A stretch of 64,000 bases of DNA from Gemmataceae bacterium (GTDB taxonomy: Bacteria; Planctomycetota; Planctomycetia; Gemmatales; Gemmataceae): NCBI GenBank assembly GCA_035266225.1, contig DATFNV010000336.1, forward strand, positions 134 through 64,133, written 5' to 3'. Below, piece by piece: positions 3,050 through 42,161 of this stretch (positions are counted from its first letter, which is position 1; each line of letters starts with the position of its first letter). A program made the position numbers and the translations under genes. The notes below the pieces were generated by a model. It saw only the letters and a program-made list of their open reading frames with translations. It made no database searches and had not been told where the DNA came from.

Positions 3050-4552
3050 GGACTCTTGAATCATCGTTTCCAATCGTGTCATGTCCAGCGCCGCCTCGAC
3101 CACGTCGGCCAACCGCTCTAAGGAGTCGTGGAGCGAGGCGCCGGGGGCGGTCGCCGCATGTCCCCCGGCCCCCTCGCATAGGCTGTCGAGCCACGCCCGA
3201 CGCAGCCCTGTGTTGTGGAACAGCCCGTGCAGGTAGCATCCCCACACCCGGCCGTCGTCGCTCACAGCCCCGTCGGGCAGGCCGGCCCGCTGCCCGTTGC
3301 GCGTGGCGACGTCGAGCCAGGGGCGCCCGCCGGCAGTCCGTCCCACGTGAATTTCATAGCCGTCCACCTCCTGGCCGGCCGCGGCGCTCAACCAACCCGG
3401 CCCCCCCAGCACTTGTGCCTTTACCCGGAAGGTCGCCTTGTTCTCCGCGAATGTCGTTTCGACCGGCAACAGTCCCAGGCCGGCCGACTCCACCACCCGC
3501 GATTCGACACCGCACGGGTCGCGGATCACTCGTCCGAGCAGTTGGTAGCCGCCGCAGATGCCGGCGACCGCGGCGCCCCGGGCGGCCCGCTCGCGGACCG
3601 CCTCGGCCAACCCCGTGGCGCGCAGCCAGCCCATGTCGGCGACGGTACTCTTGGTGCCGGGCAGGATGATCGCGTGCGGGTCGCCCAGCTCGCCCGGCAT
3701 CTGTACGTAGCGCAGGGTGACGCCCGGTTCGGCGATCAGCGGATCGAAATCATCGAAATTCGCGACGTGCGGTAGCCGGATGACCGCGATGTCGATGCCC
3801 CCTCTCGCCGGCGCGGGCACGAACGAATCCAGGGCCACGGCATCCTCCTCCGGGACGGCGAGTGCCGGCAGGTGCGGAATGACTCCCAGCACCGGCACGC
3901 CGCCGCGCTCCTCCAGGATGCGGACGCCGTCGGCGAAGAGCGCCGGGTCGCCGCGGAACTTGTTGACCACCAGGCCGCGGACCAGGGCACGTTCCTCCGG
4001 CTCCAGCAGCCAGAGTGTACCGAGAAGCTGGGCGAAGATGCCGCCGCGGTCGATGTCCCCCGCCAGCAGCACCGGGGCGCGGGCGTAGCGCGCCAGGCGC
4101 ATATTCACGATGTCGAGCGCCCGCAGGTTCAGCTCCGCCGGGCTGCCGGCCCCCTCGATCAGCACCAGCTCGTAAACGGCCCGCAGCCGGTCGAGCGCCG
4201 CCGTGACGACCGGCCACAATGCCTCCTTGCGCCGGTAGTAATCGGCCGCGCGCAGCGTCTGCCAGGGTCGGCCGAGGACGATGACCTGTGAGCGCGAATC
4301 CCCCTCCGGTTTGAGGAGGACGGGGTTCATGTCGGCGGCCGGCTCGATGCCGGACGCCGCCGCCTGGACCGCCTGGGCCCGGCCGATCTCGGCGCCGTCG
4401 GGGCAGACGGCCGCGTTGTTCGACATGTTCTGCGCCTTGAACGGTGCCACCCGCATCCCCCGGCGGGCGAAGACGCGACACAGCGCCGCCGTCAGCAGGC
4501 TCTTGCCGACCGACGAACTGGTCCCTTGGATCATTAGCACCCGCGCGGGCAT
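3044..4552 (-). CDS. cobQ: cobyric acid synthase
   Basis: 502 aa. N-terminal ATPase domain (MIQGTSSSVGKSLLTAALCR...FKAQNMSNN) and C-terminal glutamine amidotransferase (ICGGYQLLG, GYEIH). Confidence 0.92.
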   Translation of the reverse strand: MPARVLMIQGTSSSVGKSLLTAALCRVFARRGMRVAPFKAQNMSNNAAVCPDGAEIGRAQAVQAAASGIEPAADMNPVLLKPEGDSRSQVIVLGRPWQTLRAADYYRRKEALWPVVTAALDRLRAVYELVLIEGAGSPAELNLRALDIVNMRLARYARAPVLLAGDIDRGGIFAQLLGTLWLLEPEERALVRGLVVNKFRGDPALFADGVRILEERGGVPVLGVIPHLPALAVPEEDAVALDSFVPAPARGGIDIAVIRLPHVANFDDFDPLIAEPGVTLRYVQMPGELGDPHAIILPGTKSTVADMGWLRATGLAEAVRERAARGAAVAGICGGYQLLGRVIRDPCGVESRVVESAGLGLLPVETTFAENKATFRVKAQVLGGPGWLSAAAGQEVDGYEIHVGRTAGGRPWLDVATRNGQRAGLPDGAVSDDGRVWGCYLHGLFHNTGLRRAWLDSLCEGAGGHAATAPGASLHDSLERLADVVEAALDMTRLETMIQESV

Positions 4553-4554
4553 GG

Positions 4555-5634
4555 TTACAGCACCTCCCGGATCGCGGTCAGGAGGCGCTCGTTCTCTTCC
4601 GGCCGGCGCGTGCTGATGCGGACGTGCTCGGGCAGGCCGAAGGAGGCACAGTCGCGGACCAGCAGGCCCCGCGTCAGAAGTCGATGCCGGAAGGCGGCGC
4701 CGTCGCCGACGTGGACCAGGAAGAACGGGACCGCCGACGGCAGCGGACGCAGGCCGAGCCCCGTCAGTCCGGCCGTCAGCGCCGCCTTCGCCTCAGCGAG
4801 CATCTCCAGGGACCGGGCCCGGTGCGCCGGGTCGCCGAGGGCGGCTACTCCCGCGGCCTGAGCCAGGGCGTTGACGCTCCAGGGCGATTGCACCCGCCGC
4901 AGCGCTTCGACCAGCGGCCCCGGCCCGACCGCGTAGCCGAGGCGCAGGCCGGCCAGGCCGCAGTCCTTCGTCAGAGAGCGCAGCACCAGGAGGTTCTCTG
5001 CCGCCACGTCGAGGGCCGAGCCGAAGTCCGCGGCGAAGGGCTGGTAGGCCTCGTCCACGACGAATAGCGCCGCCGGATACCGCCGAACCAGCCTCCCGAG
5101 GACGTCGGAACGGAGAACGGCTCCCGTTGGGTTGTTCGGATTGCACACGAACACGACCCGTGGCCGCAGTCGCTCAAGCGCACAGGCGAAGGGCATGAGG
5201 TCCGGCTGAAAATCGTCCTCGGCGCGAGCCTGCCACAGGGTCAGATGGCCCCCCATCAAGCGGGCGGCGCGGACATATTCGCCGTAGGTCGGCCCGAGTA
5301 CCACCACCACATCACCGGGCCGGACGAAGGCCAGCGCCGCCAGGAAAATCAATTCCGAGGCCCCATTGCCGGCGATAAGGCAGCCGATGGCGACGCCCAG
5401 CGATTCGGCCAGCGCCGTGCAGAGAGCCAGCGCCTCGCGGTCGGGGTAGCGGTCCAGAGAAACTTGGATCAGCGCCGCGCGCACGGCTGGCGACGGACCA
5501 TACGGATTGGTGTTGGCGCTGAAGTCGATGACCTTGTCGGGGTCGAGCCCGAGGCACCGCAATTCGCCGAAGTCCAGGGCACCGTGGACGACAGGGGGAA
5601 CACTCCGGATCGGACGACGCGGCTCAGGTGGCAT
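4555..5634 (-). CDS. cobD: threonine-phosphate decarboxylase (CobD/CobC, class I/II aminotransferase fold)
   Basis: ORF trimmed to ATG 5634 (MPPEPRR...), overlapping the cobS stop by 11 nt. Motifs FSANTNPYGP, VCNPNNPTG and SLTKDCGLAGLRLGY (PLP lysine context). Confidence 0.8.
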   Translation of the reverse strand: MPPEPRRPIRSVPPVVHGALDFGELRCLGLDPDKVIDFSANTNPYGPSPAVRAALIQVSLDRYPDREALALCTALAESLGVAIGCLIAGNGASELIFLAALAFVRPGDVVVVLGPTYGEYVRAARLMGGHLTLWQARAEDDFQPDLMPFACALERLRPRVVFVCNPNNPTGAVLRSDVLGRLVRRYPAALFVVDEAYQPFAADFGSALDVAAENLLVLRSLTKDCGLAGLRLGYAVGPGPLVEALRRVQSPWSVNALAQAAGVAALGDPAHRARSLEMLAEAKAALTAGLTGLGLRPLPSAVPFFLVHVGDGAAFRHRLLTRGLLVRDCASFGLPEHVRISTRRPEENERLLTAIREVL

Positions 5635-6442
5635 GGTTTCCTCCCGCCACGAAGAGCAGCAAGGTCGCCACCTCCAGCAACTCGCAGAGGGCGCCGTAGA
5701 CGTCGCCGGTGAGTCCCGGCAGACGGCGCAGCACGAAACGCCCACCGATCCATGTCATCCCCGCCGCCAGCGGGATCGCCAGGAGTGCGCGCCAACCGCC
5801 CGGCACCACGACGGCGATGCCAGCCACGACAGTCCCGGCGAACAAACTGGCGAGCAAGGCTTGCGGCCAGCGTGCGTGATCCTTCATGGCTCGTCCCAGC
5901 CCCTCGGGCCGCCCATAGGGGAAGCCGACCACCGCCACGGCCATCCCCCAGCGGCCGACCACGGGGGCCAGGACCAGCGCCGCCAGTCGCTCCGGGTTGC
6001 CGGCGAGGGCCGCGTACTTGAGCAGCAGCAGGAGAATTCCGCCGATGACGGCGAACGCCCCCGCGCGCTCATCGCGCATGATCCGCAACCGGGCCTCCGG
6101 CGTGTGGCCGCCGAACAGGCCGTCACAGGAATCGAGGAAGCCGTCCAGGTGCAGCGCCCCCGTAACCAGGACCCAGGCGGCCAGCACCAGCGCGGCCGTC
6201 ACGCCCGGCGGGAAGGCCAGTCCCAGGAGCCAATCCAGCCCGGCCAGCAACCCGCCAAGGAGGGCGCCGACCAGCGGGAACCAGCCGACCGACCGGCCCA
6301 GCTCCTTGGGGGAGAATGGCCGGCGCACCAGCGGCAGCACCGTCAGGAATTGCACGGCGGCCGCAAGCCCCAGTCCGCTGCGCTCTTCCTTATCCCCCGG
6401 GCGAGCCGGCGTCGCCTGTTTCTCCTGGAGAGAGGAGGTCAT
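5624..6442 (-). CDS. cobS: adenosylcobinamide-GDP ribazoletransferase (cobalamin synthase)
   Basis: Start at ATG 6442, in ATGA overlap with the cbiA stop. Polytopic membrane protein with LTVLP, FPLVG and HLDGFLDSCDGLFG motifs. Confidence 0.88.
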   Translation of the reverse strand: MTSSLQEKQATPARPGDKEERSGLGLAAAVQFLTVLPLVRRPFSPKELGRSVGWFPLVGALLGGLLAGLDWLLGLAFPPGVTAALVLAAWVLVTGALHLDGFLDSCDGLFGGHTPEARLRIMRDERAGAFAVIGGILLLLLKYAALAGNPERLAALVLAPVVGRWGMAVAVVGFPYGRPEGLGRAMKDHARWPQALLASLFAGTVVAGIAVVVPGGWRALLAIPLAAGMTWIGGRFVLRRLPGLTGDVYGALCELLEVATLLLFVAGGNHAT

Positions 6443-15087: not shown

Positions 15088-15264
15088 GCGATCGGTCCTC
15101 CCTGGCCGCCGCACGACGGCGGCGAGCCGGCAAACTATGCACCTCGGCGGAACTGGCTGGGGGAGGAAGAAAGGCGGTGGCGAAGTGAGGCCGTCATCGG
15201 CCACGTGAGCCGGTCCGGAGTCCGCACACCGTTGCTCCCGTCCCCTTGCCGCGAGGTTACGTCA

Positions 15265-15400
<136 letters not shown>

Positions 15401-15461
15401 CACTTACCGTAGACGAGTCTATCGAGCGGCCGGACGAAGGCAACGGCGCGGCGCGCGGAAA

Positions 15462-32047: not shown

Positions 32048-33067
32048 ATGGCGATGGTCTGCCCCAAGTGTAACGGGTCGTTCAAGCAGCGCTGGCAGTG
32101 TCCGACCTGCGGCGTCCGCCTCGCCTACCAGTCGGGGTCGCGGCCCGTGATCGGCGAGGAGGCCCAGGCCAGCCCGTGGGGGCAAACGCCGTGGGGCCGC
32201 ATCCTCGTCGGCGTCCTGCTGTCGCAGGGGCTCTACCACGGCCTGCGCCAGCTGGCCACCGCCGGCCTGCTCGTCAGCGGCGACGAGGCGGCCCGCAGCG
32301 TGTGGTCCACCCTATACGGCCTCGTCATCCTCCAGGCCATCCAGGCGCTGTGCCTGGTCGTCGCCGGCATGTTGGCCGGCGCCGGCTTGCGCCAGGGGAT
32401 CGTTTTCGGCGCCATCGTCGGCGTGTGGAACGGGGTGTTGTCGGTGGTCATCCAGAGCGCCGGCGGCGTGCCGCACACGGCCGTCACCCTGCTGGGGCAG
32501 CCGATCCTGCACACGGTGTTCGGCGCCGCGGGCGGGCTCCTCGGCAGCCACATCTGGAAGCCGCTGCCGGTCCTCGCCGGCCCGGCCTCGCCGCAGGTCG
32601 CCCCGCCCATCGCGACTGCCCGCGTCCGCCGGCCGCTGTTCGAGGGACCGGTCGCCTGGGGCCGCATGCTGCTGGGGGCCGCCCTGGCCGTCGGCGGCGC
32701 CGTCTGGGCGCACGTCATCCTCGAAATGGTCCTCGACGCCAGCCAGGGGACGCTCGACATCACCGACCACCTGCAGGCGCAGCTGGTCACCTGGGAAGTG
32801 ACCGGGTTGGCCATGCTCGCTGGCAGCGCCCTGGCCGGGGCCGGCACCGCCAACAGCCTCAAGCAGGGGTTGTGCGTCGGCCTCGCCGTCGCCGCGGTGC
32901 TGCTTGGCTTTCGGCTGGGCGTCCGGGAAGCCCCCCTGCACGACCTGGTGCTGACCGCGGCCTGCTCGCTGGCCCTGGGACTGGCCGGCGCCTGGTTCGG
33001 CGGCAGCCTCTTCCCGCCGCTGGTCAAGGGACCGCACCGCAAGAAACTCGGGCCGGAAGCCACCTGA
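32048..33067 (+). CDS. zinc-ribbon N-terminus plus polytopic Gly/Ala-rich membrane protein
   Basis: ATG 32048. MAMVCPKCNGSFKQRWQCPTCGVRL (CxxC...CxxC) followed by about 8 hydrophobic segments. Confidence 0.65.
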   Translation: MAMVCPKCNGSFKQRWQCPTCGVRLAYQSGSRPVIGEEAQASPWGQTPWGRILVGVLLSQGLYHGLRQLATAGLLVSGDEAARSVWSTLYGLVILQAIQALCLVVAGMLAGAGLRQGIVFGAIVGVWNGVLSVVIQSAGGVPHTAVTLLGQPILHTVFGAAGGLLGSHIWKPLPVLAGPASPQVAPPIATARVRRPLFEGPVAWGRMLLGAALAVGGAVWAHVILEMVLDASQGTLDITDHLQAQLVTWEVTGLAMLAGSALAGAGTANSLKQGLCVGLAVAAVLLGFRLGVREAPLHDLVLTAACSLALGLAGAWFGGSLFPPLVKGPHRKKLGPEAT

Positions 33068-33110
33068 CCTCTCATCCCGACCCTTCACGCGACACCGACA
33101 AACCGCTCGC

Positions 33111-33138
33111 TTGACGATGCCCCACCCGCGCCTATAAC
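33111..33138 (+). promoter_or_regulatory. candidate promoter TTGACG-N16-TATAAC upstream of nuoA
   Basis: Sequence match only. It lies upstream of the hairpin at 33159-33188, which complicates interpretation. Confidence 0.3.
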
Positions 33139-33158
33139 CAAATCGCAGGGCGATCCTC

Positions 33159-33188
33159 ACCTCGACCTACGGAGTCGAGGTTCTTTTT
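33159..33188 (+). terminator. intrinsic-terminator-like hairpin ACCTCGAC-CTACGGA-GTCGAGGT followed by TCTTTTT
   Basis: 8-bp GC-rich stem, 7-nt loop and a T-tract. Lies 92 nt after the stop of the 32048..33067 gene and 53 nt before the nuoA ATG. Confidence 0.45.
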
Positions 33189-33240
33189 CGCACGACTTCG
33201 TGAAAAAAATCACGATCTTCCTGTCGGGGGGATAGGTCGG

Positions 33241-33642
33241 ATGGATTTCAGCCTTTCGACATACTATCCGATCTTCATCTACCTGATTGCCGTGGTGCTG
33301 TTCGCCGCCGGCGTGATGGTGGTGACGCACCTCCCTTTCCTCAAGCCGAAGAAGCGCACCGCGGTGAAGCTGATGCCCTACGAGTCGGGCATGGACCCGA
33401 TCGGCGACGCCCGGCAGCGCTTCGACGTGAAATTCTACCTCGTCGCCATCTTGTTCCTGGTGTTCGACGTCGAGCTGCTCTTCCTCTATCCGTGGGCGGT
33501 GGTGGCGTACGGCCAGTCGGACGATCCGCTCTTGCCGCCGCAGTTCCGGGCCATCGTCTTCTGGGAGGTGATCGTCTTCCTCGTGACGCTGGCGGTGGCC
33601 TACGTCTACGCCTGGCGGAAGGGGGTCTTCACATGGCGCTGA
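33241..33642 (+). CDS. nuoA: NADH-quinone oxidoreductase subunit A
   Basis: 133 aa, 3 TM. Motifs YESGMDP and [22 protein letters not shown]. Confidence 0.93.
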
Positions 33643-34226
33643 GAGACTTCTTCGTCACGACACTCGACTGGGCGGCCAGCCTGGCGCGGAAGAACAGCCT
33701 GTGGCCGATGCCGTTCGGGACGGCGTGCTGCGCCATCGAGCTGATGGCGGCGGGGGCCTCGCGCCACGACATCGCCCGCTTCGGCGCCGAGGCCATGCGC
33801 TTCAGCCCGCGGCAGTGCGACCTGATGATCGTCGCCGGCCGCGTGGTCATGAAGATGGTGCCGGTGATGCAGCGCATCTGGCTGCAGATGCCGGAGCCCA
33901 AGTGGTGCATCTCGATGGGCGCCTGCGCCTCCAGCGGCGGCGTCTTCGACACCTACTGCACCGTGCAGGGCATCGACCGCTTCATCCCGGTGGACATTTA
34001 CATCCCCGGCTGCCCGCCACGGCCCGAACAGATCCTGCAAGCGATCATCGACTTGCAGGAGCGCATCCAGAAAGGCGGCACGCTGACCGGCAAGGAGTTC
34101 GCTGCCCGCACCCGGCCGAAGAATCCGGCCCCGCTGGCGCTGGAGGTGCTGCCGGCGGACAAAATGGTGGCGCCCGGCGACTTCGCCACGGCGACGCGCC
34201 TGCGCGAGGGGGAGAAGTCACCGTGA
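33633..34226 (+). CDS. nuoB: NADH-quinone oxidoreductase subunit B
   Basis: ATG 33633, overlapping the nuoA end. Motifs [22 protein letters not shown] and IPGCPPRPE (N2 cluster cysteines). Confidence 0.93.
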
Positions 34227-34726
34227 CCCACGACGAAATCCTCGCCGGGCTGCGCGAGCGCTTCGGGCCGGACTCGTTCGCGACGGCAGAGTTCCGCGAC
34301 AACCGGCGCGTCATCGTGCCCGCCGAGCGCGTCCACGCCGTGCTGGCATTCCTCAAGGGACAGTGCGGCTTCGACATGCTCGCCGAAATGACGGCTGTCG
34401 ATTACCTGCGCTACCCCAACGCCAAGGACCGTTACGGCGTCGTCTACTGTCTGCTCGACACCAGGGCGGGGACGCGCCTGGTGGTCAAGACGTTCGTGAA
34501 CGATCCCGAGCCGGTGCTGCCGTCGGCCTACCCCCTGTGGAAGGCGGCCGACTGGCTGGAGCGCGAGGTGTACGACATGTACGGCATCCGCTTCGACGGA
34601 CACCCGGACCTGCGCCGCATCCTGATGCCGGAGGAGTTCACCGCCTACCCGCTGCGCAAGGACTACCCGCTGCGCGGCAAGGGGGAGCGGCACAACCTGC
34701 CGGTGCTGACGAGGGCGGAAGGTTAA
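34223..34726 (+). CDS. nuoC: NADH-quinone oxidoreductase subunit C
   Basis: GTG 34223 in GTGA overlap with the nuoB stop. Motifs [39 protein letters not shown] and [10 protein letters not shown]. Confidence 0.9.
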
Positions 34727-34728
34727 GG

Positions 34729-34830
34729 CAATTGCAGATTGCAGATTGCAGATTGGAAGACAAATCTGCAATCTGCAATCTGCAATCTGCAATCTGCAAT
34801 CTGCAATCTGCAATCTGCAATCTGCAATCT
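34729..34830. repeat. asymmetric heptamer palindrome: about 3.5 x AGATTGC, spacer, about 9-10 x GCAATCT
   Basis: Read directly. Starts 3 nt after the nuoC TAA and ends immediately before the GGAGGG Shine-Dalgarno sequence of nuoD. Confidence 0.95.
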
Positions 34831-34839
34831 GGAGGGATC

Positions 34840-36060
34840 ATGCCACTGGAAACGCTCGATCCCCTGGCCGACGAGGTGGCCGAGAAAGACTACCAGTGGA
34901 CCCTCAACTTCGGCCCACAGCACCCGGCCACGCACACGACGCTGCGCCTGCTCCTGACGATTGACGGCGAGACCGTCATCAAGGCGGTGCCGGACATCGG
35001 CTACCTGCACAGCGGCTTCGAGAAGCTCGGCGAGCACCTCGACTACAACCAGTACGTCACCATCGTGGACCGGATGAACTACATCTCGCCGGTCATGAAC
35101 GAGATCGCCTGGTTCCACGTCGTCGAGAAGCTGATGGGCGTCGAGATCACGCCGCGCTGCAAGTACCTGCGCGTCATCCTGGGCGAATTGTCGCGTATCT
35201 CCGACCACCTGCTCTGCACCGGGGCGGCGGCGCTCGACCTGGGGGCCCTCACCGCCTTCCTGTACGCCTTCTACCAGCGCGAGAAGCTCTACGACATCTT
35301 CGAGTTCGCCTCGGGGCAGCGCTTCCACCCCAGCTATTTCCGCGTCGGCGGGCTGACCCGCGACGTGGACGACGCCTGGATCGACCGGGTGCGCGACTTC
35401 ATCAAGGGCTTCCCGCGGGCGCACGCCGACGTAACGAAGCTGCTCAACCGCAACCGCATCTTCATCGACCGCACCCACGGCATCGGCGTCCTGACCCGCG
35501 AGGAGGCGATCAACCGCGGCGCCACCGGCCCCGTCGCCCGCGCCAGCGGTGTGGTCCGCGACCTGCGCAAGGACGAGCCGTACCTCGCCTACAAGGATTT
35601 CGACTTCAAGGTCGTCTGCTCGACCGCCGGCGACAGCTACGCCCGCTACCTGGTACGCATGGAAGAGATGCTCGAGTCGCTGAAGATCGTCGCGCAGGCG
35701 GTCGAGAATTTGCCGGGCGGCCCGGTCAACGTGGACGTGGAAGGCAAGGCGGTGCTGCCCGACCAGCTGGCGGTGTACCGCAGCATCGAGTCGCTGATCC
35801 AGCACTTCGAGTTGGTCATGACCAACCGGCAATGGCAGCCGCCGGTCGAGGAACTCTACGGGGCGGTCGAGTCGCCGAACGGGGAGCTGGGCTTCTACGT
35901 CGTCAGCGACGGCAGCGGGCAGGCGTACCGGGCGCGGACGCGGCCGCCGTCGTACATCCATTTCGCCCTGTTCCCGCAGCTGATCGTCGGACACCAGGTA
36001 AGCGACGTGGTGGCGGTGCTGGGGAGCCTGAACATCATCGCGGCGGAGCTGGACCGGTAG
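34840..36060 (+). CDS. nuoD: NADH-quinone oxidoreductase subunit D
   Basis: ATG 34840, with GGAGGG at -9. Motifs LNFGPQHPATHTTLRL, IGYLHSGFEKL and RPPSYIHF. Confidence 0.93.
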   Translation: MPLETLDPLADEVAEKDYQWTLNFGPQHPATHTTLRLLLTIDGETVIKAVPDIGYLHSGFEKLGEHLDYNQYVTIVDRMNYISPVMNEIAWFHVVEKLMGVEITPRCKYLRVILGELSRISDHLLCTGAAALDLGALTAFLYAFYQREKLYDIFEFASGQRFHPSYFRVGGLTRDVDDAWIDRVRDFIKGFPRAHADVTKLLNRNRIFIDRTHGIGVLTREEAINRGATGPVARASGVVRDLRKDEPYLAYKDFDFKVVCSTAGDSYARYLVRMEEMLESLKIVAQAVENLPGGPVNVDVEGKAVLPDQLAVYRSIESLIQHFELVMTNRQWQPPVEELYGAVESPNGELGFYVVSDGSGQAYRARTRPPSYIHFALFPQLIVGHQVSDVVAVLGSLNIIAAELDR

Positions 36061-36118
36061 GTCAGGCTTTCCAGCCTGACCGGGCTTGGGGTCAGGCTGG
36101 AAAGCCTGACCTACGATG
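36059..36118. mobile_element. 60-nt twin-hairpin insertion flanked by a 14-nt direct repeat (MITE/REP-like, non-autonomous)
   Basis: Hairpins GGTCAGGCTTTCCAGCCTGACC (36060-36081) and GGTCAGGCTGGAAAGCCTGACC (36090-36111). The direct repeat GGAGCTGGACCGGT occurs at 36045-36058 and 36119-36132. Confidence 0.7.
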
Positions 36119-36610
36119 GGAGCTGGACCGGTGAGCGTACTGAGCGAAGACCTGCGGCAGAAGATCCTGGCGTACCTCCCGCGCTACCCGAGCAAGCAGG
36201 CGGTGACGCTGCCGGCGCTGCACGTCGTGCAGGACGCCCTGCGCTGCGTGCCGCTGGAGGCGGTCCGGGAGATCGCCGACCTGCTCGACCTGAGCCCGGC
36301 CGAGGTCGCCGACACGATGACCTTCTACGGCTTCTTCCGCCCCGAGGACAAGCCGCTCGGCAAGACTCGCCTGTGGGTGTGCCGGGGATTGGCCTGCGCC
36401 CTCCGCGGCGGCGAGGAGCTGCTGTCGGACCTGTGTCAGCGGCTGAACGTCCGGCCCGGCCAGACGAGCGCGGACGGCAAGGTCACCGTCGAGTTCGCCG
36501 AGTGCATCGGCGTGTGCGAGGGAGCGCCGGCGGTGCTGATCGACGACGCCGGGCGCGGGGACGTGACGCCGGATCGGGTGGACGCCCTGCTGGCAGAACT
36601 GCGACAATGA
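36116..36610 (+). CDS. nuoE: NADH-quinone oxidoreductase subunit E
   Basis: 164 aa. 2Fe-2S cysteines in VCRGLAC and ECIGVCEGAP. The ancestral start was probably the in-frame GTG 36131. Confidence 0.9.
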   Translation: MGAGPVSVLSEDLRQKILAYLPRYPSKQAVTLPALHVVQDALRCVPLEAVREIADLLDLSPAEVADTMTFYGFFRPEDKPLGKTRLWVCRGLACALRGGEELLSDLCQRLNVRPGQTSADGKVTVEFAECIGVCEGAPAVLIDDAGRGDVTPDRVDALLAELRQ

Positions 36611-36638
36611 CGGCGGCCCGCGAGAGGAGGGTTCAGCC

Positions 36639-36992
36639 ATGCAACTGGAAGATTACTTCGAGTTCGAGAAGTTCACGACCCCGTTTGGGCCGGTCGAGCG
36701 CATCCGGATCAAGGGACACCGGATCGCTATCGAGAACGTCATCGACTACTTCAATCAAGGGATGCAGCCGAGGGAGATTTGCGAGAAATTGCCGACCCTT
36801 ACGCTGGAGGAGGTTTACGCGACGGTCACGTACTACCTCCACAACAAGGAAAAGGTAGACGCCTACAACGAGGAGGGCGAGAAGATCGCGGACGCGTGGT
36901 ATCAGGAGTACCTCAAATACGGGCCGTACTTCTTGCGGGACCGGGCGAGCGAGTACGTTGTTGGACCGGAAGTCCCACCCGACCATGACTAA
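36639..36992 (+). CDS. DUF433-domain protein (putative antitoxin)
   Basis: 117 aa. IRIKGHRIAIENVIDYFNQGMQPREICEKLPTLTLEEVYATVTYY fits the DUF433 helix-turn-helix pattern. About 55% GC versus about 70% in the flanks. Confidence 0.7.
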   Translation: MQLEDYFEFEKFTTPFGPVERIRIKGHRIAIENVIDYFNQGMQPREICEKLPTLTLEEVYATVTYYLHNKEKVDAYNEEGEKIADAWYQEYLKYGPYFLRDRASEYVVGPEVPPDHD

Positions 36993-37344
36993 ACCGCGGT
37001 TTCTATGCGATGAGAACATCGACCCGGACCTCGTCGATGCCATCCGGCAGATGGGGCCCGCCATCGACGTCATTCGGGTCGGCGATCCCGGCGCTCCGCC
37101 CTTGGGTACAAAGGATCCCGATCTCCTTATCGCTGCCGAGGCGTCGGGGCGTGTCTTTGTTTCCCACGACCGGCGCTCGATGTCAGGCCACTTGGCAAAC
37201 CACTACGCTGCCGGACGACACACGGCAGGGATCATTCTGTTGCGGCGAAGGTTTTCGATCGGGCAGTACGCCCGAGAAATCGTCAATCAGTGGGCAACCA
37301 CGACTGCTGACGAGTGGGTTGATCGCACGATGTACTTGCCCTAA
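36985..37344 (+). CDS. DUF5615 / Mut7-C-like PIN-fold protein (putative toxin)
   Basis: ATG 36985, overlapping the DUF433 stop by 8 nt. MTKPRFLCDENIDPDLVDAIRQMG...DPDLLIAAEASGRVFVSHDRR...AGIILLRR. Confidence 0.7.
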   Translation: MTKPRFLCDENIDPDLVDAIRQMGPAIDVIRVGDPGAPPLGTKDPDLLIAAEASGRVFVSHDRRSMSGHLANHYAAGRHTAGIILLRRRFSIGQYAREIVNQWATTTADEWVDRTMYLP

Positions 37345-37373
37345 CGATTGGAACGTGCCTTGATGCTGGGTGA

Positions 37374-38708
37374 ATGCTGATGCCTGACTTTGAACCCGTG
37401 CTCCTGCGCCGCATCCTCCGCAACGCGGACGTCTCCCTGGAGGCGTACCGGGCCGACGGCGGCTACCGCGCCCTGGCGAAGGCGCTGGGCGAGATGGCCC
37501 CGGCGCAGGTCATCGACGTGGTCAAGGCGTCGGGGCTGCGCGGCCGCGGCGGCGCCGGCTTCCCGTGCGGCGTCAAGTGGACCTTCCTGCCCAAGGACCA
37601 CCCCGGCCCCATTTACATGTGCGTCAACGCCGACGAAAGCGAGCCCTGCACCTTCAACAACCGCATCTTGATGGAACAGGATCCGCACCAGATCCTCGAA
37701 GGCATCATCCTGTCGTGCTACGCCGTCAAGGCGACGACGGCTTACGTCTACGTCCGCTACGAGTACGGCCCCGCCGCCCGCGCCATGCAGCGCGCCATCG
37801 ACGAGGCCTACGCCGCGAACCTCCTGGGCCGCCACGTCCAGGGCAAGGACATCCACCTCGACGTCTTCGTCCACCGCGGGGCCGGCGCCTACATCTGTGG
37901 CGAGGAGACCGGCCTGATCGAAAGCCTGGAGGGCAAGCGCGCCTGGCCGCGCATCAAGCCGCCGTTCCCGGCCGTCGAAGGCGCCTTCCGCAAGCCGACC
38001 ATCGTCAACAACATCGAGACGATGGCCTGCGTCACGCACGTCGTCGATCGCGGCGCCGACTGGTTCAAGTCGATCGGCGTGCCGCCCGACCCGAAGAACC
38101 CGCGCGACGCCGGCAGCTACGGGCCGAAGCTGTACTGCCTCAGCGGCCACGTCAACAGGCCGGGCTGCGTCGAATTGCCGCTGGGCATCACGGTGCGCGA
38201 GCTGGTCGAGAAACACGGTGGCGGCGTCTGGAAGGGCAAGAAGGCCAAGGGCTGCATCCCCGGCGGCATCAGCATGGGCCTGATGACCGAGGCCGAGTTC
38301 GACACGCCGCTGGACTTCAACGGCCCCGGCAAGGTCGGCTGCCTCGGCCTCGGCACGGCCGCGGTCACGGTGTTCGACGAGGACACGAGCATTGTCGATG
38401 TCCTGTACAACGTCTGCCGCTTCTTCGCCCACGAGTCGTGCGGCCAGTGTACCCCGTGCCGCGAGGGGACCGGCTGGATGCTGAAGATCGCCGAGCGCCT
38501 GCGCCGCGGCCAGGGCCGGCTGGAAGACCTAAAAATCCTCGAAGAAGTCGGCCACGGCATGGGCATCATGCCGGGCACGACGATCTGCGGGTTGGCGGAC
38601 GGGGCCGGCTGGCCGGTGAAGATGGCCGTCCGCAAGTTCCGGGCGGAGTTCGAGGACTACCTGCGTGCCGGGAAGAAGAGCACGGCGGCGCTGGCTGGCG
38701 TGCATTAG
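37374..38708 (+). CDS. nuoF: NADH-quinone oxidoreductase subunit F
   Basis: 444 aa. Motifs GLRGRGGAGFPCGVKW, NADESEPCTFNNR, YICGEETGLIESLEG and ESCGQCTPCREG. Confidence 0.95.
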   Translation: MLMPDFEPVLLRRILRNADVSLEAYRADGGYRALAKALGEMAPAQVIDVVKASGLRGRGGAGFPCGVKWTFLPKDHPGPIYMCVNADESEPCTFNNRILMEQDPHQILEGIILSCYAVKATTAYVYVRYEYGPAARAMQRAIDEAYAANLLGRHVQGKDIHLDVFVHRGAGAYICGEETGLIESLEGKRAWPRIKPPFPAVEGAFRKPTIVNNIETMACVTHVVDRGADWFKSIGVPPDPKNPRDAGSYGPKLYCLSGHVNRPGCVELPLGITVRELVEKHGGGVWKGKKAKGCIPGGISMGLMTEAEFDTPLDFNGPGKVGCLGLGTAAVTVFDEDTSIVDVLYNVCRFFAHESCGQCTPCREGTGWMLKIAERLRRGQGRLEDLKILEEVGHGMGIMPGTTICGLADGAGWPVKMAVRKFRAEFEDYLRAGKKSTAALAGVH

Positions 38709-38724
38709 CCGCTTGCGGCTTAGC
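38705..38724. repeat. small palindrome TTAGCCGCTTGCGGCTTAGC (half-site of the GCCGCTTGCGGC family)
   Basis: Contains the nuoF TAG stop (38706-38708). Confidence 0.7.
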
Positions 38725-38738
38725 GAGGAGGACTTGCC

Positions 38739-39227
38739 ATGCGTGGGATCCGTTGTGTGCTGCTGGCGGTCGTGCTGGTCGTGACGCTCGGCGCCTGCGG
38801 GTGCAAAAACAAGAACAAAGACACGGCCCCCGAAACGGGAGGCAACCCGCTCAGGCTGGACCAGGCCGGCGGCGCGCCGGCGCAGGGCGTGGTCCGGCGC
38901 GGGGCGCAGCGGCAGGAGATTCAGGGCATCCTGGAAAACCTCGCCAAATACTACGAACTGTACCGAGGCGAAAACGGGCGGCCGCCCAAGAGCCTTCAGG
39001 AATTCAGGGCGTACCTGGCGAGCGACCCCAACGCCCGCAAACTCGTGGAGGCCGTGGACAAGGGCTGGCTCGTGTGGGTCTTCGACCCTCCACCGAACAC
39101 CAACCAGGTGCTGGCCTACGAGAAGGAGGAGTTCGAGCAGTTCCATAACCGGCTTGTCCTCTTCGGCGGCGGTGCGGTCAAGTTGATGACCGACGCGGAA
39201 TTCCAGGCGGCGCTCAAGGGGCAGTAG
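38739..39227 (+). CDS. hypothetical lipoprotein encoded between nuoF and nuoG
   Basis: 162 aa. MRGIRCVLLAVVLVVTLGACGCKNK has a lipobox L-G-A-C. Same strand, short spacers on both sides. Confidence 0.65.
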   Translation: MRGIRCVLLAVVLVVTLGACGCKNKNKDTAPETGGNPLRLDQAGGAPAQGVVRRGAQRQEIQGILENLAKYYELYRGENGRPPKSLQEFRAYLASDPNARKLVEAVDKGWLVWVFDPPPNTNQVLAYEKEEFEQFHNRLVLFGGGAVKLMTDAEFQAALKGQ

Positions 39228-39247
39228 CTCAGCGAGGCGAGGCGCTC

Positions 39248-40888
39248 ATGGCAGTCGTTTACGTCAACGGCACGCCGGTCGATATCGGTGCCGAGAGGCT
39301 GAACCTGATTCAGGCCGCCGAGAAGGCCGGGGTGTTCATTCCCCGCTACTGCTGGCACCCGGCGCTGACCGTGGTGGCGTCGTGCCGCATGTGCCTGGTC
39401 GAGGCCGGCGAGATGAAGGACGGCAAGCCGACCCTGCAGCCGCGCGTCGTTCCCGCCTGCCAGACGCCGGCCAAGGACGGCAGCGTCATCGTCACCAACA
39501 GCGACAAGGCCAAGGCCGCCCAGGCCGGTACCCTGGAAGACCTGCTCCTCAACCATCCCCTCGACTGCCCCGTCTGCGACAAGGCCGGCGAGTGCATGCT
39601 CCAGGACTTCAGCTACCGCTTTGGCCGGTCCGAGAGTCGTATGATCGACCCGAAGCACACGCCGCCCAACAAGCCGCACATCGGGCCGAATGTCACGCTG
39701 TTCACCGACCGCTGCATCATGTGTACCCGTTGCGTCCGCTTCGCGCGCGAGGTCAGCGGTGAGGCCGAACTGCTGGTCGCGAACCGCGGCGACCACGAAG
39801 AAATCGACACCTTCCCCGGCATCCCGCTCGACAACAAGCTGGCCAGTAACGTCGTGGACCTGTGCCCCGTCGGCGCCCTGTGCAGCAAGGACTTCCTCTA
39901 CAAACAGCGCGTCTGGTTCCTCAAGGAGCAGAAGAGCGTCTGCCCCGATTGCAGCACCGGCTGCAGCGTCTGCCTCGACACCAACAAGAGCGTCGTCTAC
40001 CGCCTGCGGCCGCGCTACAACCCGCAGGCCCAGGGGCACTTCATGTGCGACGACGGCCGACTCGGCTACCACTACATCAACTCCGACCAGCGGCTGACGC
40101 AACCCTACTCCCGGCGCGACGGCCGGTTGCAACCGGCCGAGTGGCCGGAGGTGCTGGCGGGGGTGCGGCGCGAGTTCGCCGAGGCTGTGCGGCGGGACGG
40201 CTCCGCGGTCGCCGGCGTCCTGTCGCCGTTCCTGACGTGCGAGGAGGCGTTCCTGCTCGCCAAGTTCCTCAAGGGTCTGTCGGGGGAGGTGCGCCTGGCG
40301 CTGGGTCCGGTGCCGGTCGTCGGCGAGGACGATACCTATCCCAAGGACCGCCGCGGCCGGCCGGCCCAGCCGGTGAAATTCATCATTCGGGCGGAGAAAT
40401 GTCCGAACCGCCGCGGCGTCGAGGAGGTGCTACGTCACTTCCAGGGGGACGTGGTCAAGTTCGACGACGTCCTGCGCGACGCGGCGGCCGGCAAGGTGCA
40501 GGCGCTCTACCTCGCGGCCGGCTACCCGCCGCGCGGAGGCTGGATCACCGAGGCGCAGGCGAAGTCGCTGGAGAAGGTGCCGCTCCTGGTGGTGCAGGAC
40601 CTGTTCTTCACGCCGGCCACCGGCCCGGCGAAGTACGTCATCCCCGCGGTCAGCTTCGCGGAGAAGGACGGCACCTTCGTCAACCACGCTGGGCTGGCGC
40701 AGGCGATCCACTGGGGCGCAACGCCGCCTGGCGAGTGCCGCACTGACGGGCAAGTGTTCCTCGACCTGCTGGAGCGCCGCGGGCTGGCGCACGCGCCGAC
40801 CTTTAGGAAGGAATTGGCCGGCGAAGTGCCGTACTTCGCGCCGCTGGCGCCGGGGGAGATCGGCGAATACGGGGTAATGCTCGTTTAG
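39248..40888 (+). CDS. nuoG: NADH-quinone oxidoreductase subunit G (short form)
   Basis: 546 aa. 2Fe-2S region CWHPALTVVASCRMCLVE, then HPLDCPVCDKAGEC, CIMCTRCVRF and LCPVGAL. Confidence 0.92.
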   Translation: MAVVYVNGTPVDIGAERLNLIQAAEKAGVFIPRYCWHPALTVVASCRMCLVEAGEMKDGKPTLQPRVVPACQTPAKDGSVIVTNSDKAKAAQAGTLEDLLLNHPLDCPVCDKAGECMLQDFSYRFGRSESRMIDPKHTPPNKPHIGPNVTLFTDRCIMCTRCVRFAREVSGEAELLVANRGDHEEIDTFPGIPLDNKLASNVVDLCPVGALCSKDFLYKQRVWFLKEQKSVCPDCSTGCSVCLDTNKSVVYRLRPRYNPQAQGHFMCDDGRLGYHYINSDQRLTQPYSRRDGRLQPAEWPEVLAGVRREFAEAVRRDGSAVAGVLSPFLTCEEAFLLAKFLKGLSGEVRLALGPVPVVGEDDTYPKDRRGRPAQPVKFIIRAEKCPNRRGVEEVLRHFQGDVVKFDDVLRDAAAGKVQALYLAAGYPPRGGWITEAQAKSLEKVPLLVVQDLFFTPATGPAKYVIPAVSFAEKDGTFVNHAGLAQAIHWGATPPGECRTDGQVFLDLLERRGLAHAPTFRKELAGEVPYFAPLAPGEIGEYGVMLV

Positions 40889-40932
40889 CGGCGGGTCGCA
40901 GACCCGCGCGGGTCTGCGACCCGCCGCTAAAC
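40883..40932. repeat. palindromic element GTTTAGCGGCGGGTCGCAGACCCGCG / CGCGGGTCTGCGACCCGCCGCTAAAC
   Basis: A near-perfect 50-nt palindrome. The first 6 nt encode the last Val and the TAG stop of nuoG. Confidence 0.9.
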
Positions 40933-40946
40933 AAGGACGGATATCC

Positions 40947-42161
40947 ATGCACTACCTATACGACACCGAGCATTTCTGGTGGACGATCATCACGGTCGCC
41001 GTCATCATGGGCGTCCTCCAGGGGACGTGCGCCTACCTGATCCTGCTGGAGCGCAAGGTGGCGGCGTGGGTGCAGGACCGCATCGGCCCCAACCGCGTCG
41101 GCCCCTTCGGCCTGCTGCAGCCCATCGCCGACGGTGTCAAGTTCCTCCTCAAGGAGGACATCGTCCCCTCCCACGTCGATAAGGTCTTCTTCCTCATCGC
41201 CCCGGCGATCGCCATCGGCACCGCGACCTTGGCCTTCGCCGTCGTCCCCTTCGGCCCGACCAGCGAGCCGCCCCAGGTCAAGTGGGCGCAATCGACGACC
41301 GAGGCTGCCCAGGTCTACACGCCAGAAGTGGTCAAGGAGAAAGACGAGTACAACGACCGGTATCAGGCGGTGATTGCGCCGCACGTGGACATCGGCTTCC
41401 TGTTCCTGTTCGCGGTGAGCAGCCTCGCGGTATACGGCATCATCCTGGGCGGCTGGTCGTCCAACGACAAGTACAGCCTCATGGGCGCCCTGCGCTCCAG
41501 CGCCCAGCTCATCAGCTACGAGATCCCGATGGGCCTGTCGATCCTTGGCGTCGTCATTCTGACGGGGTCGCTGAACCTGGAACGGATCATCGGGGCCCAG
41601 CTCAACCACGGTTGGAACGTCGTCTATCAACCTCTGGCCTGTCTGCTGTTTCTGACGAGCATCTTTGCCGAGTGCAACCGCCTGCCGTTCGACCTGCCCG
41701 AGGCCGAGCAGGAACTGGTCGGCGGCTACCACACCGAGTACAGCGCTATGAAGTTCGCGCTGTTCTTCCTCGGCGAGTACACGCACATGATCACCACGAG
41801 CTTCCTGTTCGTGACCCTGTTCTTCGGCGGCTGGCACCTCCCGTGGGTCGCCACGCCGGAATCGTTCTGGGTGGTGAAGCTGATCGTCTTCGCCGGGAAG
41901 ATGTTCCTCATCATCCTCTTCTACATGCTGGTGCGCTGGACCCTCCCGCGCTTCCGCTTCGACCAGCTCATGGGCATTGCCTGGAGGGTGCTCATCCCGC
42001 TGTCGCTGGCGAACCTGCTGGTGGTCATGGTGGTGAAGGAAGTCGCGCTGACGTACGGCTGGGCGAACTGGGCGCAGGCCGTCGTGCTGTTCGCGCTGTC
42101 GGTCGGCCTGATCGTGGTGACGGGGGCGCTGGCGCTGAGGCAGCGGCCGCTTGCGGCTTAG
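40947..42161 (+). CDS. nuoH: NADH-quinone oxidoreductase subunit H
   Basis: 404 aa. Motifs ERKVAAWVQDRIGPNRVGPFGLLQPIADGVK, AECNRLPFDLPEAEQELVGGYHTEYS and FFLGEY. Confidence 0.95.
   Translation: MHYLYDTEHFWWTIITVAVIMGVLQGTCAYLILLERKVAAWVQDRIGPNRVGPFGLLQPIADGVKFLLKEDIVPSHVDKVFFLIAPAIAIGTATLAFAVVPFGPTSEPPQVKWAQSTTEAAQVYTPEVVKEKDEYNDRYQAVIAPHVDIGFLFLFAVSSLAVYGIILGGWSSNDKYSLMGALRSSAQLISYEIPMGLSILGVVILTGSLNLERIIGAQLNHGWNVVYQPLACLLFLTSIFAECNRLPFDLPEAEQELVGGYHTEYSAMKFALFFLGEYTHMITTSFLFVTLFFGGWHLPWVATPESFWVVKLIVFAGKMFLIILFYMLVRWTLPRFRFDQLMGIAWRVLIPLSLANLLVVMVVKEVALTYGWANWAQAVVLFALSVGLIVVTGALALRQRPLAA

Follow-up and report, generated by a model that had tools for sequence, protein, structure and literature searches.

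A predicted DUF433/DUF5615 toxin-antitoxin cassette lineage at the nuoE-nuoF junction of the complex I operon in Gemmataceae

Introduction

Pairs made up of a PIN-domain protein and a COG2442 (DUF433) protein were predicted as a new class of type II toxin-antitoxin modules by Makarova et al. (PMC2701414). In the 2017 classification of PIN domains, COG4634 and PIN_10 were classed as Mut7-C-group PIN-like potential toxins with DUF433 antitoxins; the Mut7-C group, including COG4634, has a reduced PIN-like fold and was without a solved structure as of that classification (PMC5499597). VapBC45 (Rv2018/Rv2019) of M. tuberculosis is an example of the COG4634/DUF5615 and PIN_10 toxins that are paired with DUF433 antitoxins (PMC5499597, PMC2701414). 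The PIN-COG2442 pair VapBC10 (ssr2962/slr1767) of Synechocystis PCC 6803 is toxic in E. coli, its toxin is neutralised by the DUF433 partner through complex formation, and the antitoxin is degraded by ClpXP, with toxicity and neutralisation established by experiment (PMC3834315). The two VapBC10 genes are co-transcribed (PMC3834315) as a bicistronic operon that stands alone and has a promoter of its own, activated by VapB10.

Known members of the COG4634/DUF5615 family are scattered in genomes or lie in defence islands, and they are not fixed in a respiratory operon. Hotspots flanked by core genes are familiar as sites of defence and toxin-antitoxin cargo, and some toxin-antitoxin pairs are co-transcribed with housekeeping genes, for example relA-mazEF in E. 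coli. No relevant report of a toxin-antitoxin module within a nuo operon emerged from a literature search.

Here we describe a predicted module of this class within the nuo operon of a Gemmataceae bacterium, in a stretch of 64,000 nucleotides referred to as the window. As in VapBC10, a DUF433/COG2442 antitoxin gene stands 5' of a PIN-type toxin gene, a likeness at the PIN-COG2442 level. Unlike VapBC10, the window pair is embedded in the nuo operon and shows no promoter that could be recognised. The window toxin shares with the COG4634/DUF5615 and PIN_10 toxins the domain family, the DUF433 partner and a conserved N-terminal Asp, and from sequence profiles it would share their reduced PIN-like fold. 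The antitoxins differ in architecture: in Rv2018 the DUF433 domain is fused to a winged HTH, whereas the window protein consists of DUF433 alone with a C-terminal helical extension.

Results and Discussion

A two-gene cassette between nuoE and nuoF

The nuo (complex I) operon occupies 33.2-42.2 kb of the window on the + strand, in the order nuoA, nuoB, nuoC, nuoD, nuoE, the pair, nuoF, a 162-aa ORF, nuoG and nuoH. The features surrounding the pair, in window positions, are as follows.

Ends at 36060, + strand: nuoD
36116..36610, + strand: nuoE, NADH dehydrogenase subunit E, 2Fe-2S thioredoxin-like (2Fe-2S_thioredx; Pfam PF01257, E=5.3e-40)
36611..36638, + strand: 28-nt spacer between nuoE and the DUF433 gene, with a GGAGG Shine-Dalgarno sequence at 36626-36630
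36639..36992, + strand: DUF433/COG2442 gene, 117 aa, predicted antitoxin (Pfam PF04255)
36985..37344, + strand: DUF5615/COG4634 (Mut7-C group) PIN-like gene, 119 aa, predicted RNase toxin (Pfam PF18480)
37345..37373, + strand: 29-nt spacer separating the DUF5615 gene from nuoF, with no terminator-like hairpin
37374..38708, + strand: nuoF, 51-kDa FMN subunit (Complex1_51K; Pfam PF01512, PF10589)
38739-39227, + strand: 162-aa ORF between nuoF and nuoG, with a lipoprotein-like N-terminus (…LGACGC…)
39248-40888, + strand: nuoG, part of the nuo operon

The DUF433 and DUF5615 genes lie on the same strand with the antitoxin gene first, and they overlap by 8 nt (ATGACTAA), which suggests translational coupling of antitoxin and toxin. 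An earlier reading of the DNA made from the letters and their open reading frames, here called the sequence-only reading, had described two small same-strand genes with an 8-nt overlap interrupting an otherwise contiguous nuo operon; this arrangement was confirmed, coordinates included. The GGAGG motif is positioned 8 nt 5' of the DUF433 start, and comparison of starts with those of relatives revealed GGAGG or GGAGGG before the start in most other cassettes as well. The ATG of the DUF5615 gene is also the start used by its homologues, and in the cassettes of relatives the two genes share 4-nt ATGA overlaps. The true start of nuoF is probably the ATG at 37380, because the NuoF proteins of relatives begin MPDFEP. 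Window NuoE is 61-87% identical to NuoE of relatives, and window NuoF is 69-90% identical across the 80 loci described below. No second copy of the DUF433 or DUF5615 gene was found elsewhere in the 64-kb window.

Using the E. coli consensus, which may not fit Planctomycetota, no sigma-70-like promoter was detected in 33000-41000. No intrinsic terminator was found near the pair in a scan, no palindrome is present in the 28-nt spacer upstream of the DUF433 gene, and Rfam identified no RNA family in or near the pair. The nuoE-nuoF gap contains no transposase, integrase or recombinase gene and no further ORF of such function, and a search around the pair for a target-site duplication, terminal inverted repeats and flanking direct repeats gave only short repeats at chance level. 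Delivery by a transposon, an IS or an integron was rejected in view of the missing target-site duplication, terminal inverted repeat and transposase. No promoter, terminator or mobility gene belonging to the pair itself was recognised, and the pair would most likely be a passenger of the nuo transcript.

Domain content and predicted function of the two proteins

Both proteins matched their Pfam families above threshold, with 46 bits against a cut-off of 23.6 for DUF433 (PF04255) and 41.1 bits against 23.8 for DUF5615 (PF18480). The DUF5615 protein also matched PIN_10 just below threshold (24.4 versus 26.2). Assignment as a canonical VapC (Pfam PIN, PF01850) was rejected, as there was no PF01850 match and only the DUF5615 and sub-threshold PIN_10 matches. 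Neither protein matched a family in NCBIfam or an anti-phage defence model in PADLOC.

The DUF433 protein has at least 300 close homologues and matches PDB 2GA1, the only DUF433 crystal structure, by sequence (E=4.4e-4). In its AF2 model (pLDDT 87.8), a beta-hairpin at the N-terminus is followed by a three-helix HTH-like core, a long C-terminal helix spanning residues 70-94 and a disordered tail, and 2GA1 was also the best fold match of the model (probability 1.00). The AF2 model of the DUF5615 protein (pLDDT 95.7) consists of alternating beta and alpha elements and had no neighbour at E<=0.001 in a PDB fold search; matches to flavodoxin-, CheY- and TIR-like alpha/beta folds were discarded as generic (E>0.03). 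Sequence and profile searches of a 2026 copy of the PDB with this protein returned nothing meaningful and no structure of the Mut7-C group. Because there is no significant PDB neighbour, the PIN-like fold of the DUF5615 protein rests on sequence profiles and the literature.

A profile built from 30 DUF5615 homologues retrieved 2603 family clusters (50% identity) from 1.84 billion representatives. Conservation across 127 diverse DUF5615 representatives was 100% for D9, 93% for E10, 100% for D44, 75% for D62 and 78% for D113, and the window protein keeps each of these residues. Between cassettes, dN/dS was 0.03-0.27 for the DUF433 gene and 0.09-0.32 for the DUF5615 gene, values that are rough since dS is saturated for all cassette pairs. 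As these ratios of about 0.03-0.3 are well under 1, both genes are, as judged from sequence divergence, under purifying selection and both proteins maintained by it.

The order, size and overlap of the genes, their domain content and the conserved acidic residues all agree, and for this reason the pair is classed as a predicted DUF433(COG2442)/PIN-like(COG4634 = DUF5615, Mut7-C group) type II toxin-antitoxin module. The sequence-only reading had called it a toxin-antitoxin-like DUF433/PIN-like pair, a view upheld by the two Pfam matches and by the published class. By homology with characterised PIN-COG2442 modules, the DUF5615 protein would act as a metal-dependent RNase and, in its free state, arrest growth. 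The DUF433 protein would be made first from the shared message, would bind and neutralise the toxin, and would be the less stable of the two proteins.

Cassettes at the homologous junction of relatives

A NuoF scan of 185,579 species genomes yielded 80 loci. The best matches were Gemmataceae/Gemmatales metagenome-assembled genomes (MAGs), with up to 90% identity; Schlesneria, Pirellulales and others came next. These matches assign the window to a member of Gemmataceae (Planctomycetota). Among these NuoF-recruited loci, tblastn identified a DUF433 plus DUF5615 pair between nuoE and nuoF in eight (L002, L007, L013, L015, L018, L022, L030 and L032), with 47-68% identity to the window antitoxin and 35-60% identity to the window toxin. 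We also looked up the genomic context of homologous proteins. The order nuoE-pair-nuoF was found in 10 of 11 look-ups, for seven homologues of the DUF5615 protein (39-71% identical) and three of the DUF433 protein (L081, L083, L086, L088, L091, L093, L094, L095, L096 and a JGI contig without DNA). The junction comparison that the sequence-only reading had proposed thus places the pair at nuoE-nuoF in L002 and in at least 19 other Gemmataceae loci.

The sole exception among the 11 look-ups was L090, a 2.6-kb contig binned as Ktedonobacterales (binning taken at face value), where a homologous cassette lies outside nuo: positions 38-751 hold a DUF5615 gene 52% identical to that of the window, then a DUF433 gene, and metH follows. 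Several cassettes at the nuo site depart from the two-gene form. L007 carries two divergent DUF433/DUF5615 pairs in tandem (4025-5495; 45% different), and L091 has the order antitoxin, toxin, second DUF433-like gene (402-1484). In L095 (3342-3702) the toxin gene is frameshifted and the antitoxin gene is intact, which may reflect pseudogene decay or an assembly error.

Two genomes have NuoF proteins 90% identical to that of the window. The sister genome L002 carries the pair at the homologous junction with a spacer similar to that of the window, and in L001 the nuoE-nuoF junction is empty. The nuoE gene of L001 shows an apparent 1-nt deletion relative to the window at about position 5880, where the tblastn match stops at residue 136; this is probably a long-read assembly error.

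A composition bias shared by the cassette lineage

Analysis of base composition revealed a GC content of 58.4% for the pair compared with a window mean of 68.4%, and the pair is the lowest-GC 706-bp stretch of the whole 64 kb (z = -3.4). The sequence-only reading had put the difference at about 55% against about 70%, which was right in direction and somewhat overstated in size. The GC3 values of the two genes are 0.81 and 0.71, compared with 0.91-0.95 in nuoD, nuoE and nuoF. The GC and codon-usage comparison suggested earlier therefore came out as expected, with the pair atypical in composition for the window and not host-like in codon usage.

The low GC content of this stretch is what speaks for a recent, private horizontal gain from a lower-GC donor. 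However, L002 shares the homologous junction and the similar spacer, at least 19 other loci carry the pair at nuoE-nuoF, and no insertion scars were seen. In addition, a GC3 deficit relative to the cassette's own nuo genes was found in 14 of 14 cassettes measured, with mean GC3 values of 0.66 and 0.69 compared with 0.82-0.83 in the nuo genes. Contradicted by the L002 junction and by this lineage-wide deficit, a recent private acquisition is highly improbable. The GC dip is common to the cassette lineage as a whole, where weak codon bias and/or movement between hosts would account for it, and it does not date the insertion. The horizontal acquisition that the sequence-only reading had drawn from low GC holds insofar as the history of the cassette is not purely vertical, a result of the cassette tree described below, but low GC is no mark of a private or recent gain.

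Patchy distribution and conflict between cassette and host trees

A neighbour-joining tree was built from concatenated NuoD+E+F, and on it loci with the pair fall only within the Gemmataceae clade, where they are interleaved with empty relatives. Of the 29 Gemmataceae loci on this tree that had been recruited with NuoF, 7 carry the pair, leaving about three quarters without it. The combination that the sequence-only reading had named as telling against its proposal, family-wide presence with host-like codon usage, was not what we found. Empty nuoE-nuoF junctions measured 5-137 nt, and no cassette remnants were seen in those of relatives. Strong or long inverted repeats (hairpins) were observed in the empty spacers of L004, L006, L008, L010, L012, L024, L028 and L053; they could serve in RNA stability or processing, or could be REP-like repeats.

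The cassette tree, likewise built by neighbour joining and from short proteins, conflicted with the Nuo tree at several points. The window cassette grouped with that of L081 at 91% bootstrap and never with that of L002, whereas the Nuo tree joined the window and L002 at 100% bootstrap. L013 grouped with L030 and L032 at 98% bootstrap in the cassette tree versus 3% in the Nuo tree. The Nuo proteins of L007 and L088 differ by 4%, yet the difference between their cassettes ranges from 44% (same subclade) to 52%. In a sliding-window comparison of the window, L002 and L081, the window was nearer to L002 in nuoD, most of nuoE and nuoF, and the relationship flipped only inside the cassette; no clear recombination tract was detected in the cassette flanks by this comparison.

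As read from these trees, the conflict indicates either that cassettes were replaced at a fixed site or that old tandem paralogues were sorted. In the second case an ancestral tandem array would have undergone differential loss; L007 shows that arrays exist. We favour replacement combined with a degree of vertical descent, chiefly since hosts that are almost identical have very different cassettes.

The paralogue explanation can be extended to the whole distribution, as a single ancient insertion in Gemmataceae, possibly with tandem duplication, followed by strictly vertical descent, many losses and no lateral exchange, the toxin-antitoxin function being the same. The limitation of the cassette to the Gemmataceae clade fits this history, as do the overall correlation between cassette and Nuo distances (Mantel r=0.37, p=0.03; Spearman 0.62), the rise and fall of cassette GC3 with host GC3, and the 45%-different tandem cassettes of L007 as a case of a paralogous array. 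Such a history would, however, need roughly ten or more independent losses. It also sits poorly with the 44% difference between same-subclade cassettes in the closely related L007 and L088, with a GC3 deficit that persists despite the supposedly long residence, and with the 52%-identical homologue beside metH and outside nuo. On balance we consider strictly vertical inheritance rather unlikely, although it keeps a real share of our confidence.

Other cargo at nuoE-nuoF

Inserts of at least 300 bp were counted at four junctions of the operon. They were present at nuoE-nuoF in 23 of 79 loci (3 of the 23 having been recruited through the cassette itself), at nuoC-nuoD in 5 of 69, at nuoD-nuoE in 4 of 79 and at nuoF-nuoG in 34 of 71. 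In comparison with nuoC-nuoD and nuoD-nuoE, the nuoE-nuoF junction can be described as permissive. Six Schlesneria-clade loci (L054, L057, L058, L060, L066 and L074) carry an unrelated two-gene unit at nuoE-nuoF; four of the six MAGs are labelled Schlesneria, and L058 and L074 have broader labels. The unit encodes a P-loop protein of about 192-201 aa that matches Zeta_toxin and AAA_33, and an overlapping small downstream ORF without a family, so that from its sequence it looks like a putative toxin-antitoxin-like architecture.

Further proteins without a family were observed in this gap. A conserved 145-160-aa protein (MSIYATLWEI…) is encoded there in two Gemmataceae loci (L005, 2190-2672; L020, 5088-5525), preceded in L005 by a gene for a double-zinc-ribbon protein, and the Gemmataceae locus L016 (4487-5988) has a pair of 428 and 71 aa.

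The nuoE-nuoF site resembles core-gene hotspots in that variable selfish or defence cargo lies between conserved core genes and differs in type by lineage. It differs from them in being a junction inside a single essential-type operon rather than between independent transcription units, and no integrase or recombinase is associated with it. Because many relatives, though by no means every one, have related modules at nuoE-nuoF, the slot appears to have housed selfish cassettes over a long time rather than to have received a one-off insertion.

Passenger or part of complex I regulation

The explanation we consider reasonably probable is that the pair is a toxin-antitoxin passenger read through with nuo and belongs to a nuoE-nuoF cassette lineage that is exchanged via conserved flanks. 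Cassettes would be gained, replaced, duplicated, degraded and lost at one site, the nuoE-nuoF junction of Gemmataceae. The most likely route of exchange, as we infer it, would be homologous recombination through conserved nuoE and nuoF acting as homology arms. Retention may be due to toxin-antitoxin addiction together with the damage to complex I that imprecise deletions would cause. The cassette is dispensable for complex I itself, because most relatives are without it, and its patchy distribution argues against an essential role of the pair. The sequence-only reading had weighed a coupling of respiration to growth arrest against a selfish module stabilised by its location, and of these two ideas the selfish module is the better fit to the data.

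Site fidelity reaching down to 35-45% protein identity could instead reflect selection for a function tied to complex I. The module might be domesticated, its RNase processing or destabilising the nuo polycistron at the N-module boundary and thereby setting stoichiometry, or a fall in nuo transcription leading to growth arrest as the antitoxin runs down. The fidelity of such divergent cassettes to the site is consistent with this, as are the tight packing with a Shine-Dalgarno sequence and no promoter of its own, and the purifying selection on both genes. The strong hairpins frequent in the empty junctions of relatives would likewise make this plausibly an RNA-processing or stability site. Against domestication, about three quarters of Gemmataceae loci are without the pair, L001 with its 90%-identical NuoF among them; L095 has a frameshifted toxin gene; other loci have unrelated cargo at this junction; and no co-variation with any nuo feature was seen. 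We regard a domesticated function as doubtful.

A broader proposal is that the nuoE-nuoF junction of Planctomycetota serves as a dedicated, recombination-accessible landing site for toxin-antitoxin modules, and that a selfish module has been co-opted there as a respiration-linked checkpoint. Because the cassette has no promoter of its own, the supply of antitoxin would follow nuo transcription; shut-down of respiratory genes would then free the RNase and result in growth arrest or remodelling of the nuo mRNA. In Gemmataceae the cargo would be DUF433/DUF5615, and in Schlesneria it would be Zeta-like kinase cassettes. We put this forward as a speculation with little chance of being correct.

Taken as a module, the pair is unremarkable within a known toxin-antitoxin class that has hardly been characterised; the PIN-like toxins of the Mut7-C group have neither a solved structure nor biochemistry. 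What is unusual is the address, as the cassette lineage is found almost exclusively at one complex I operon junction of one family and turns over there, and in a sister family this junction is used by a toxin-like cassette of unrelated type. The fixed nuo address, the turnover at that site and its parallel use by the unrelated cassette appear to be undescribed in the literature searched. If confirmed, the passenger lineage would be a natural system for the persistence and spread of toxin-antitoxin modules using housekeeping genes as homology arms. It would also show the fate of such a module under the control of a host operon instead of autoregulation, and would allow one to ask whether passengers influence respiratory gene expression.

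Additional features of the operon and window

The 162-aa ORF between nuoF and nuoG has no family in Pfam or NCBIfam. Homologues with 52-56% identity occupy the same nuoF-nuoG position in L001, L006, L008 and L009, with weaker ones elsewhere, and unannotated genes of 134-179 aa are present at nuoF-nuoG in L083, L086, L093 and L096. The nuoC-nuoD spacer of the window (34731-34831) contains heptamer tandem repeats, ATTGCAG x3.6 followed by AATCTGC x9.9, of which the second is given as the reverse complement of the first. As RNA these repeats would form a long perfect hairpin (-55 kcal/mol, z = -7.2 versus shuffles) just 5' of the nuoD Shine-Dalgarno sequence and start. In the nuoG-nuoH spacer (40891-40924), a 17-nt unit that is itself palindromic, GCGGGTCTGCGACCCGC, occurs twice in tandem. 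Outside the operon, a cobalamin riboswitch (Rfam RF00174, 52 bits, E = 4.5e-10) was identified at 15260-15405 on the - strand.
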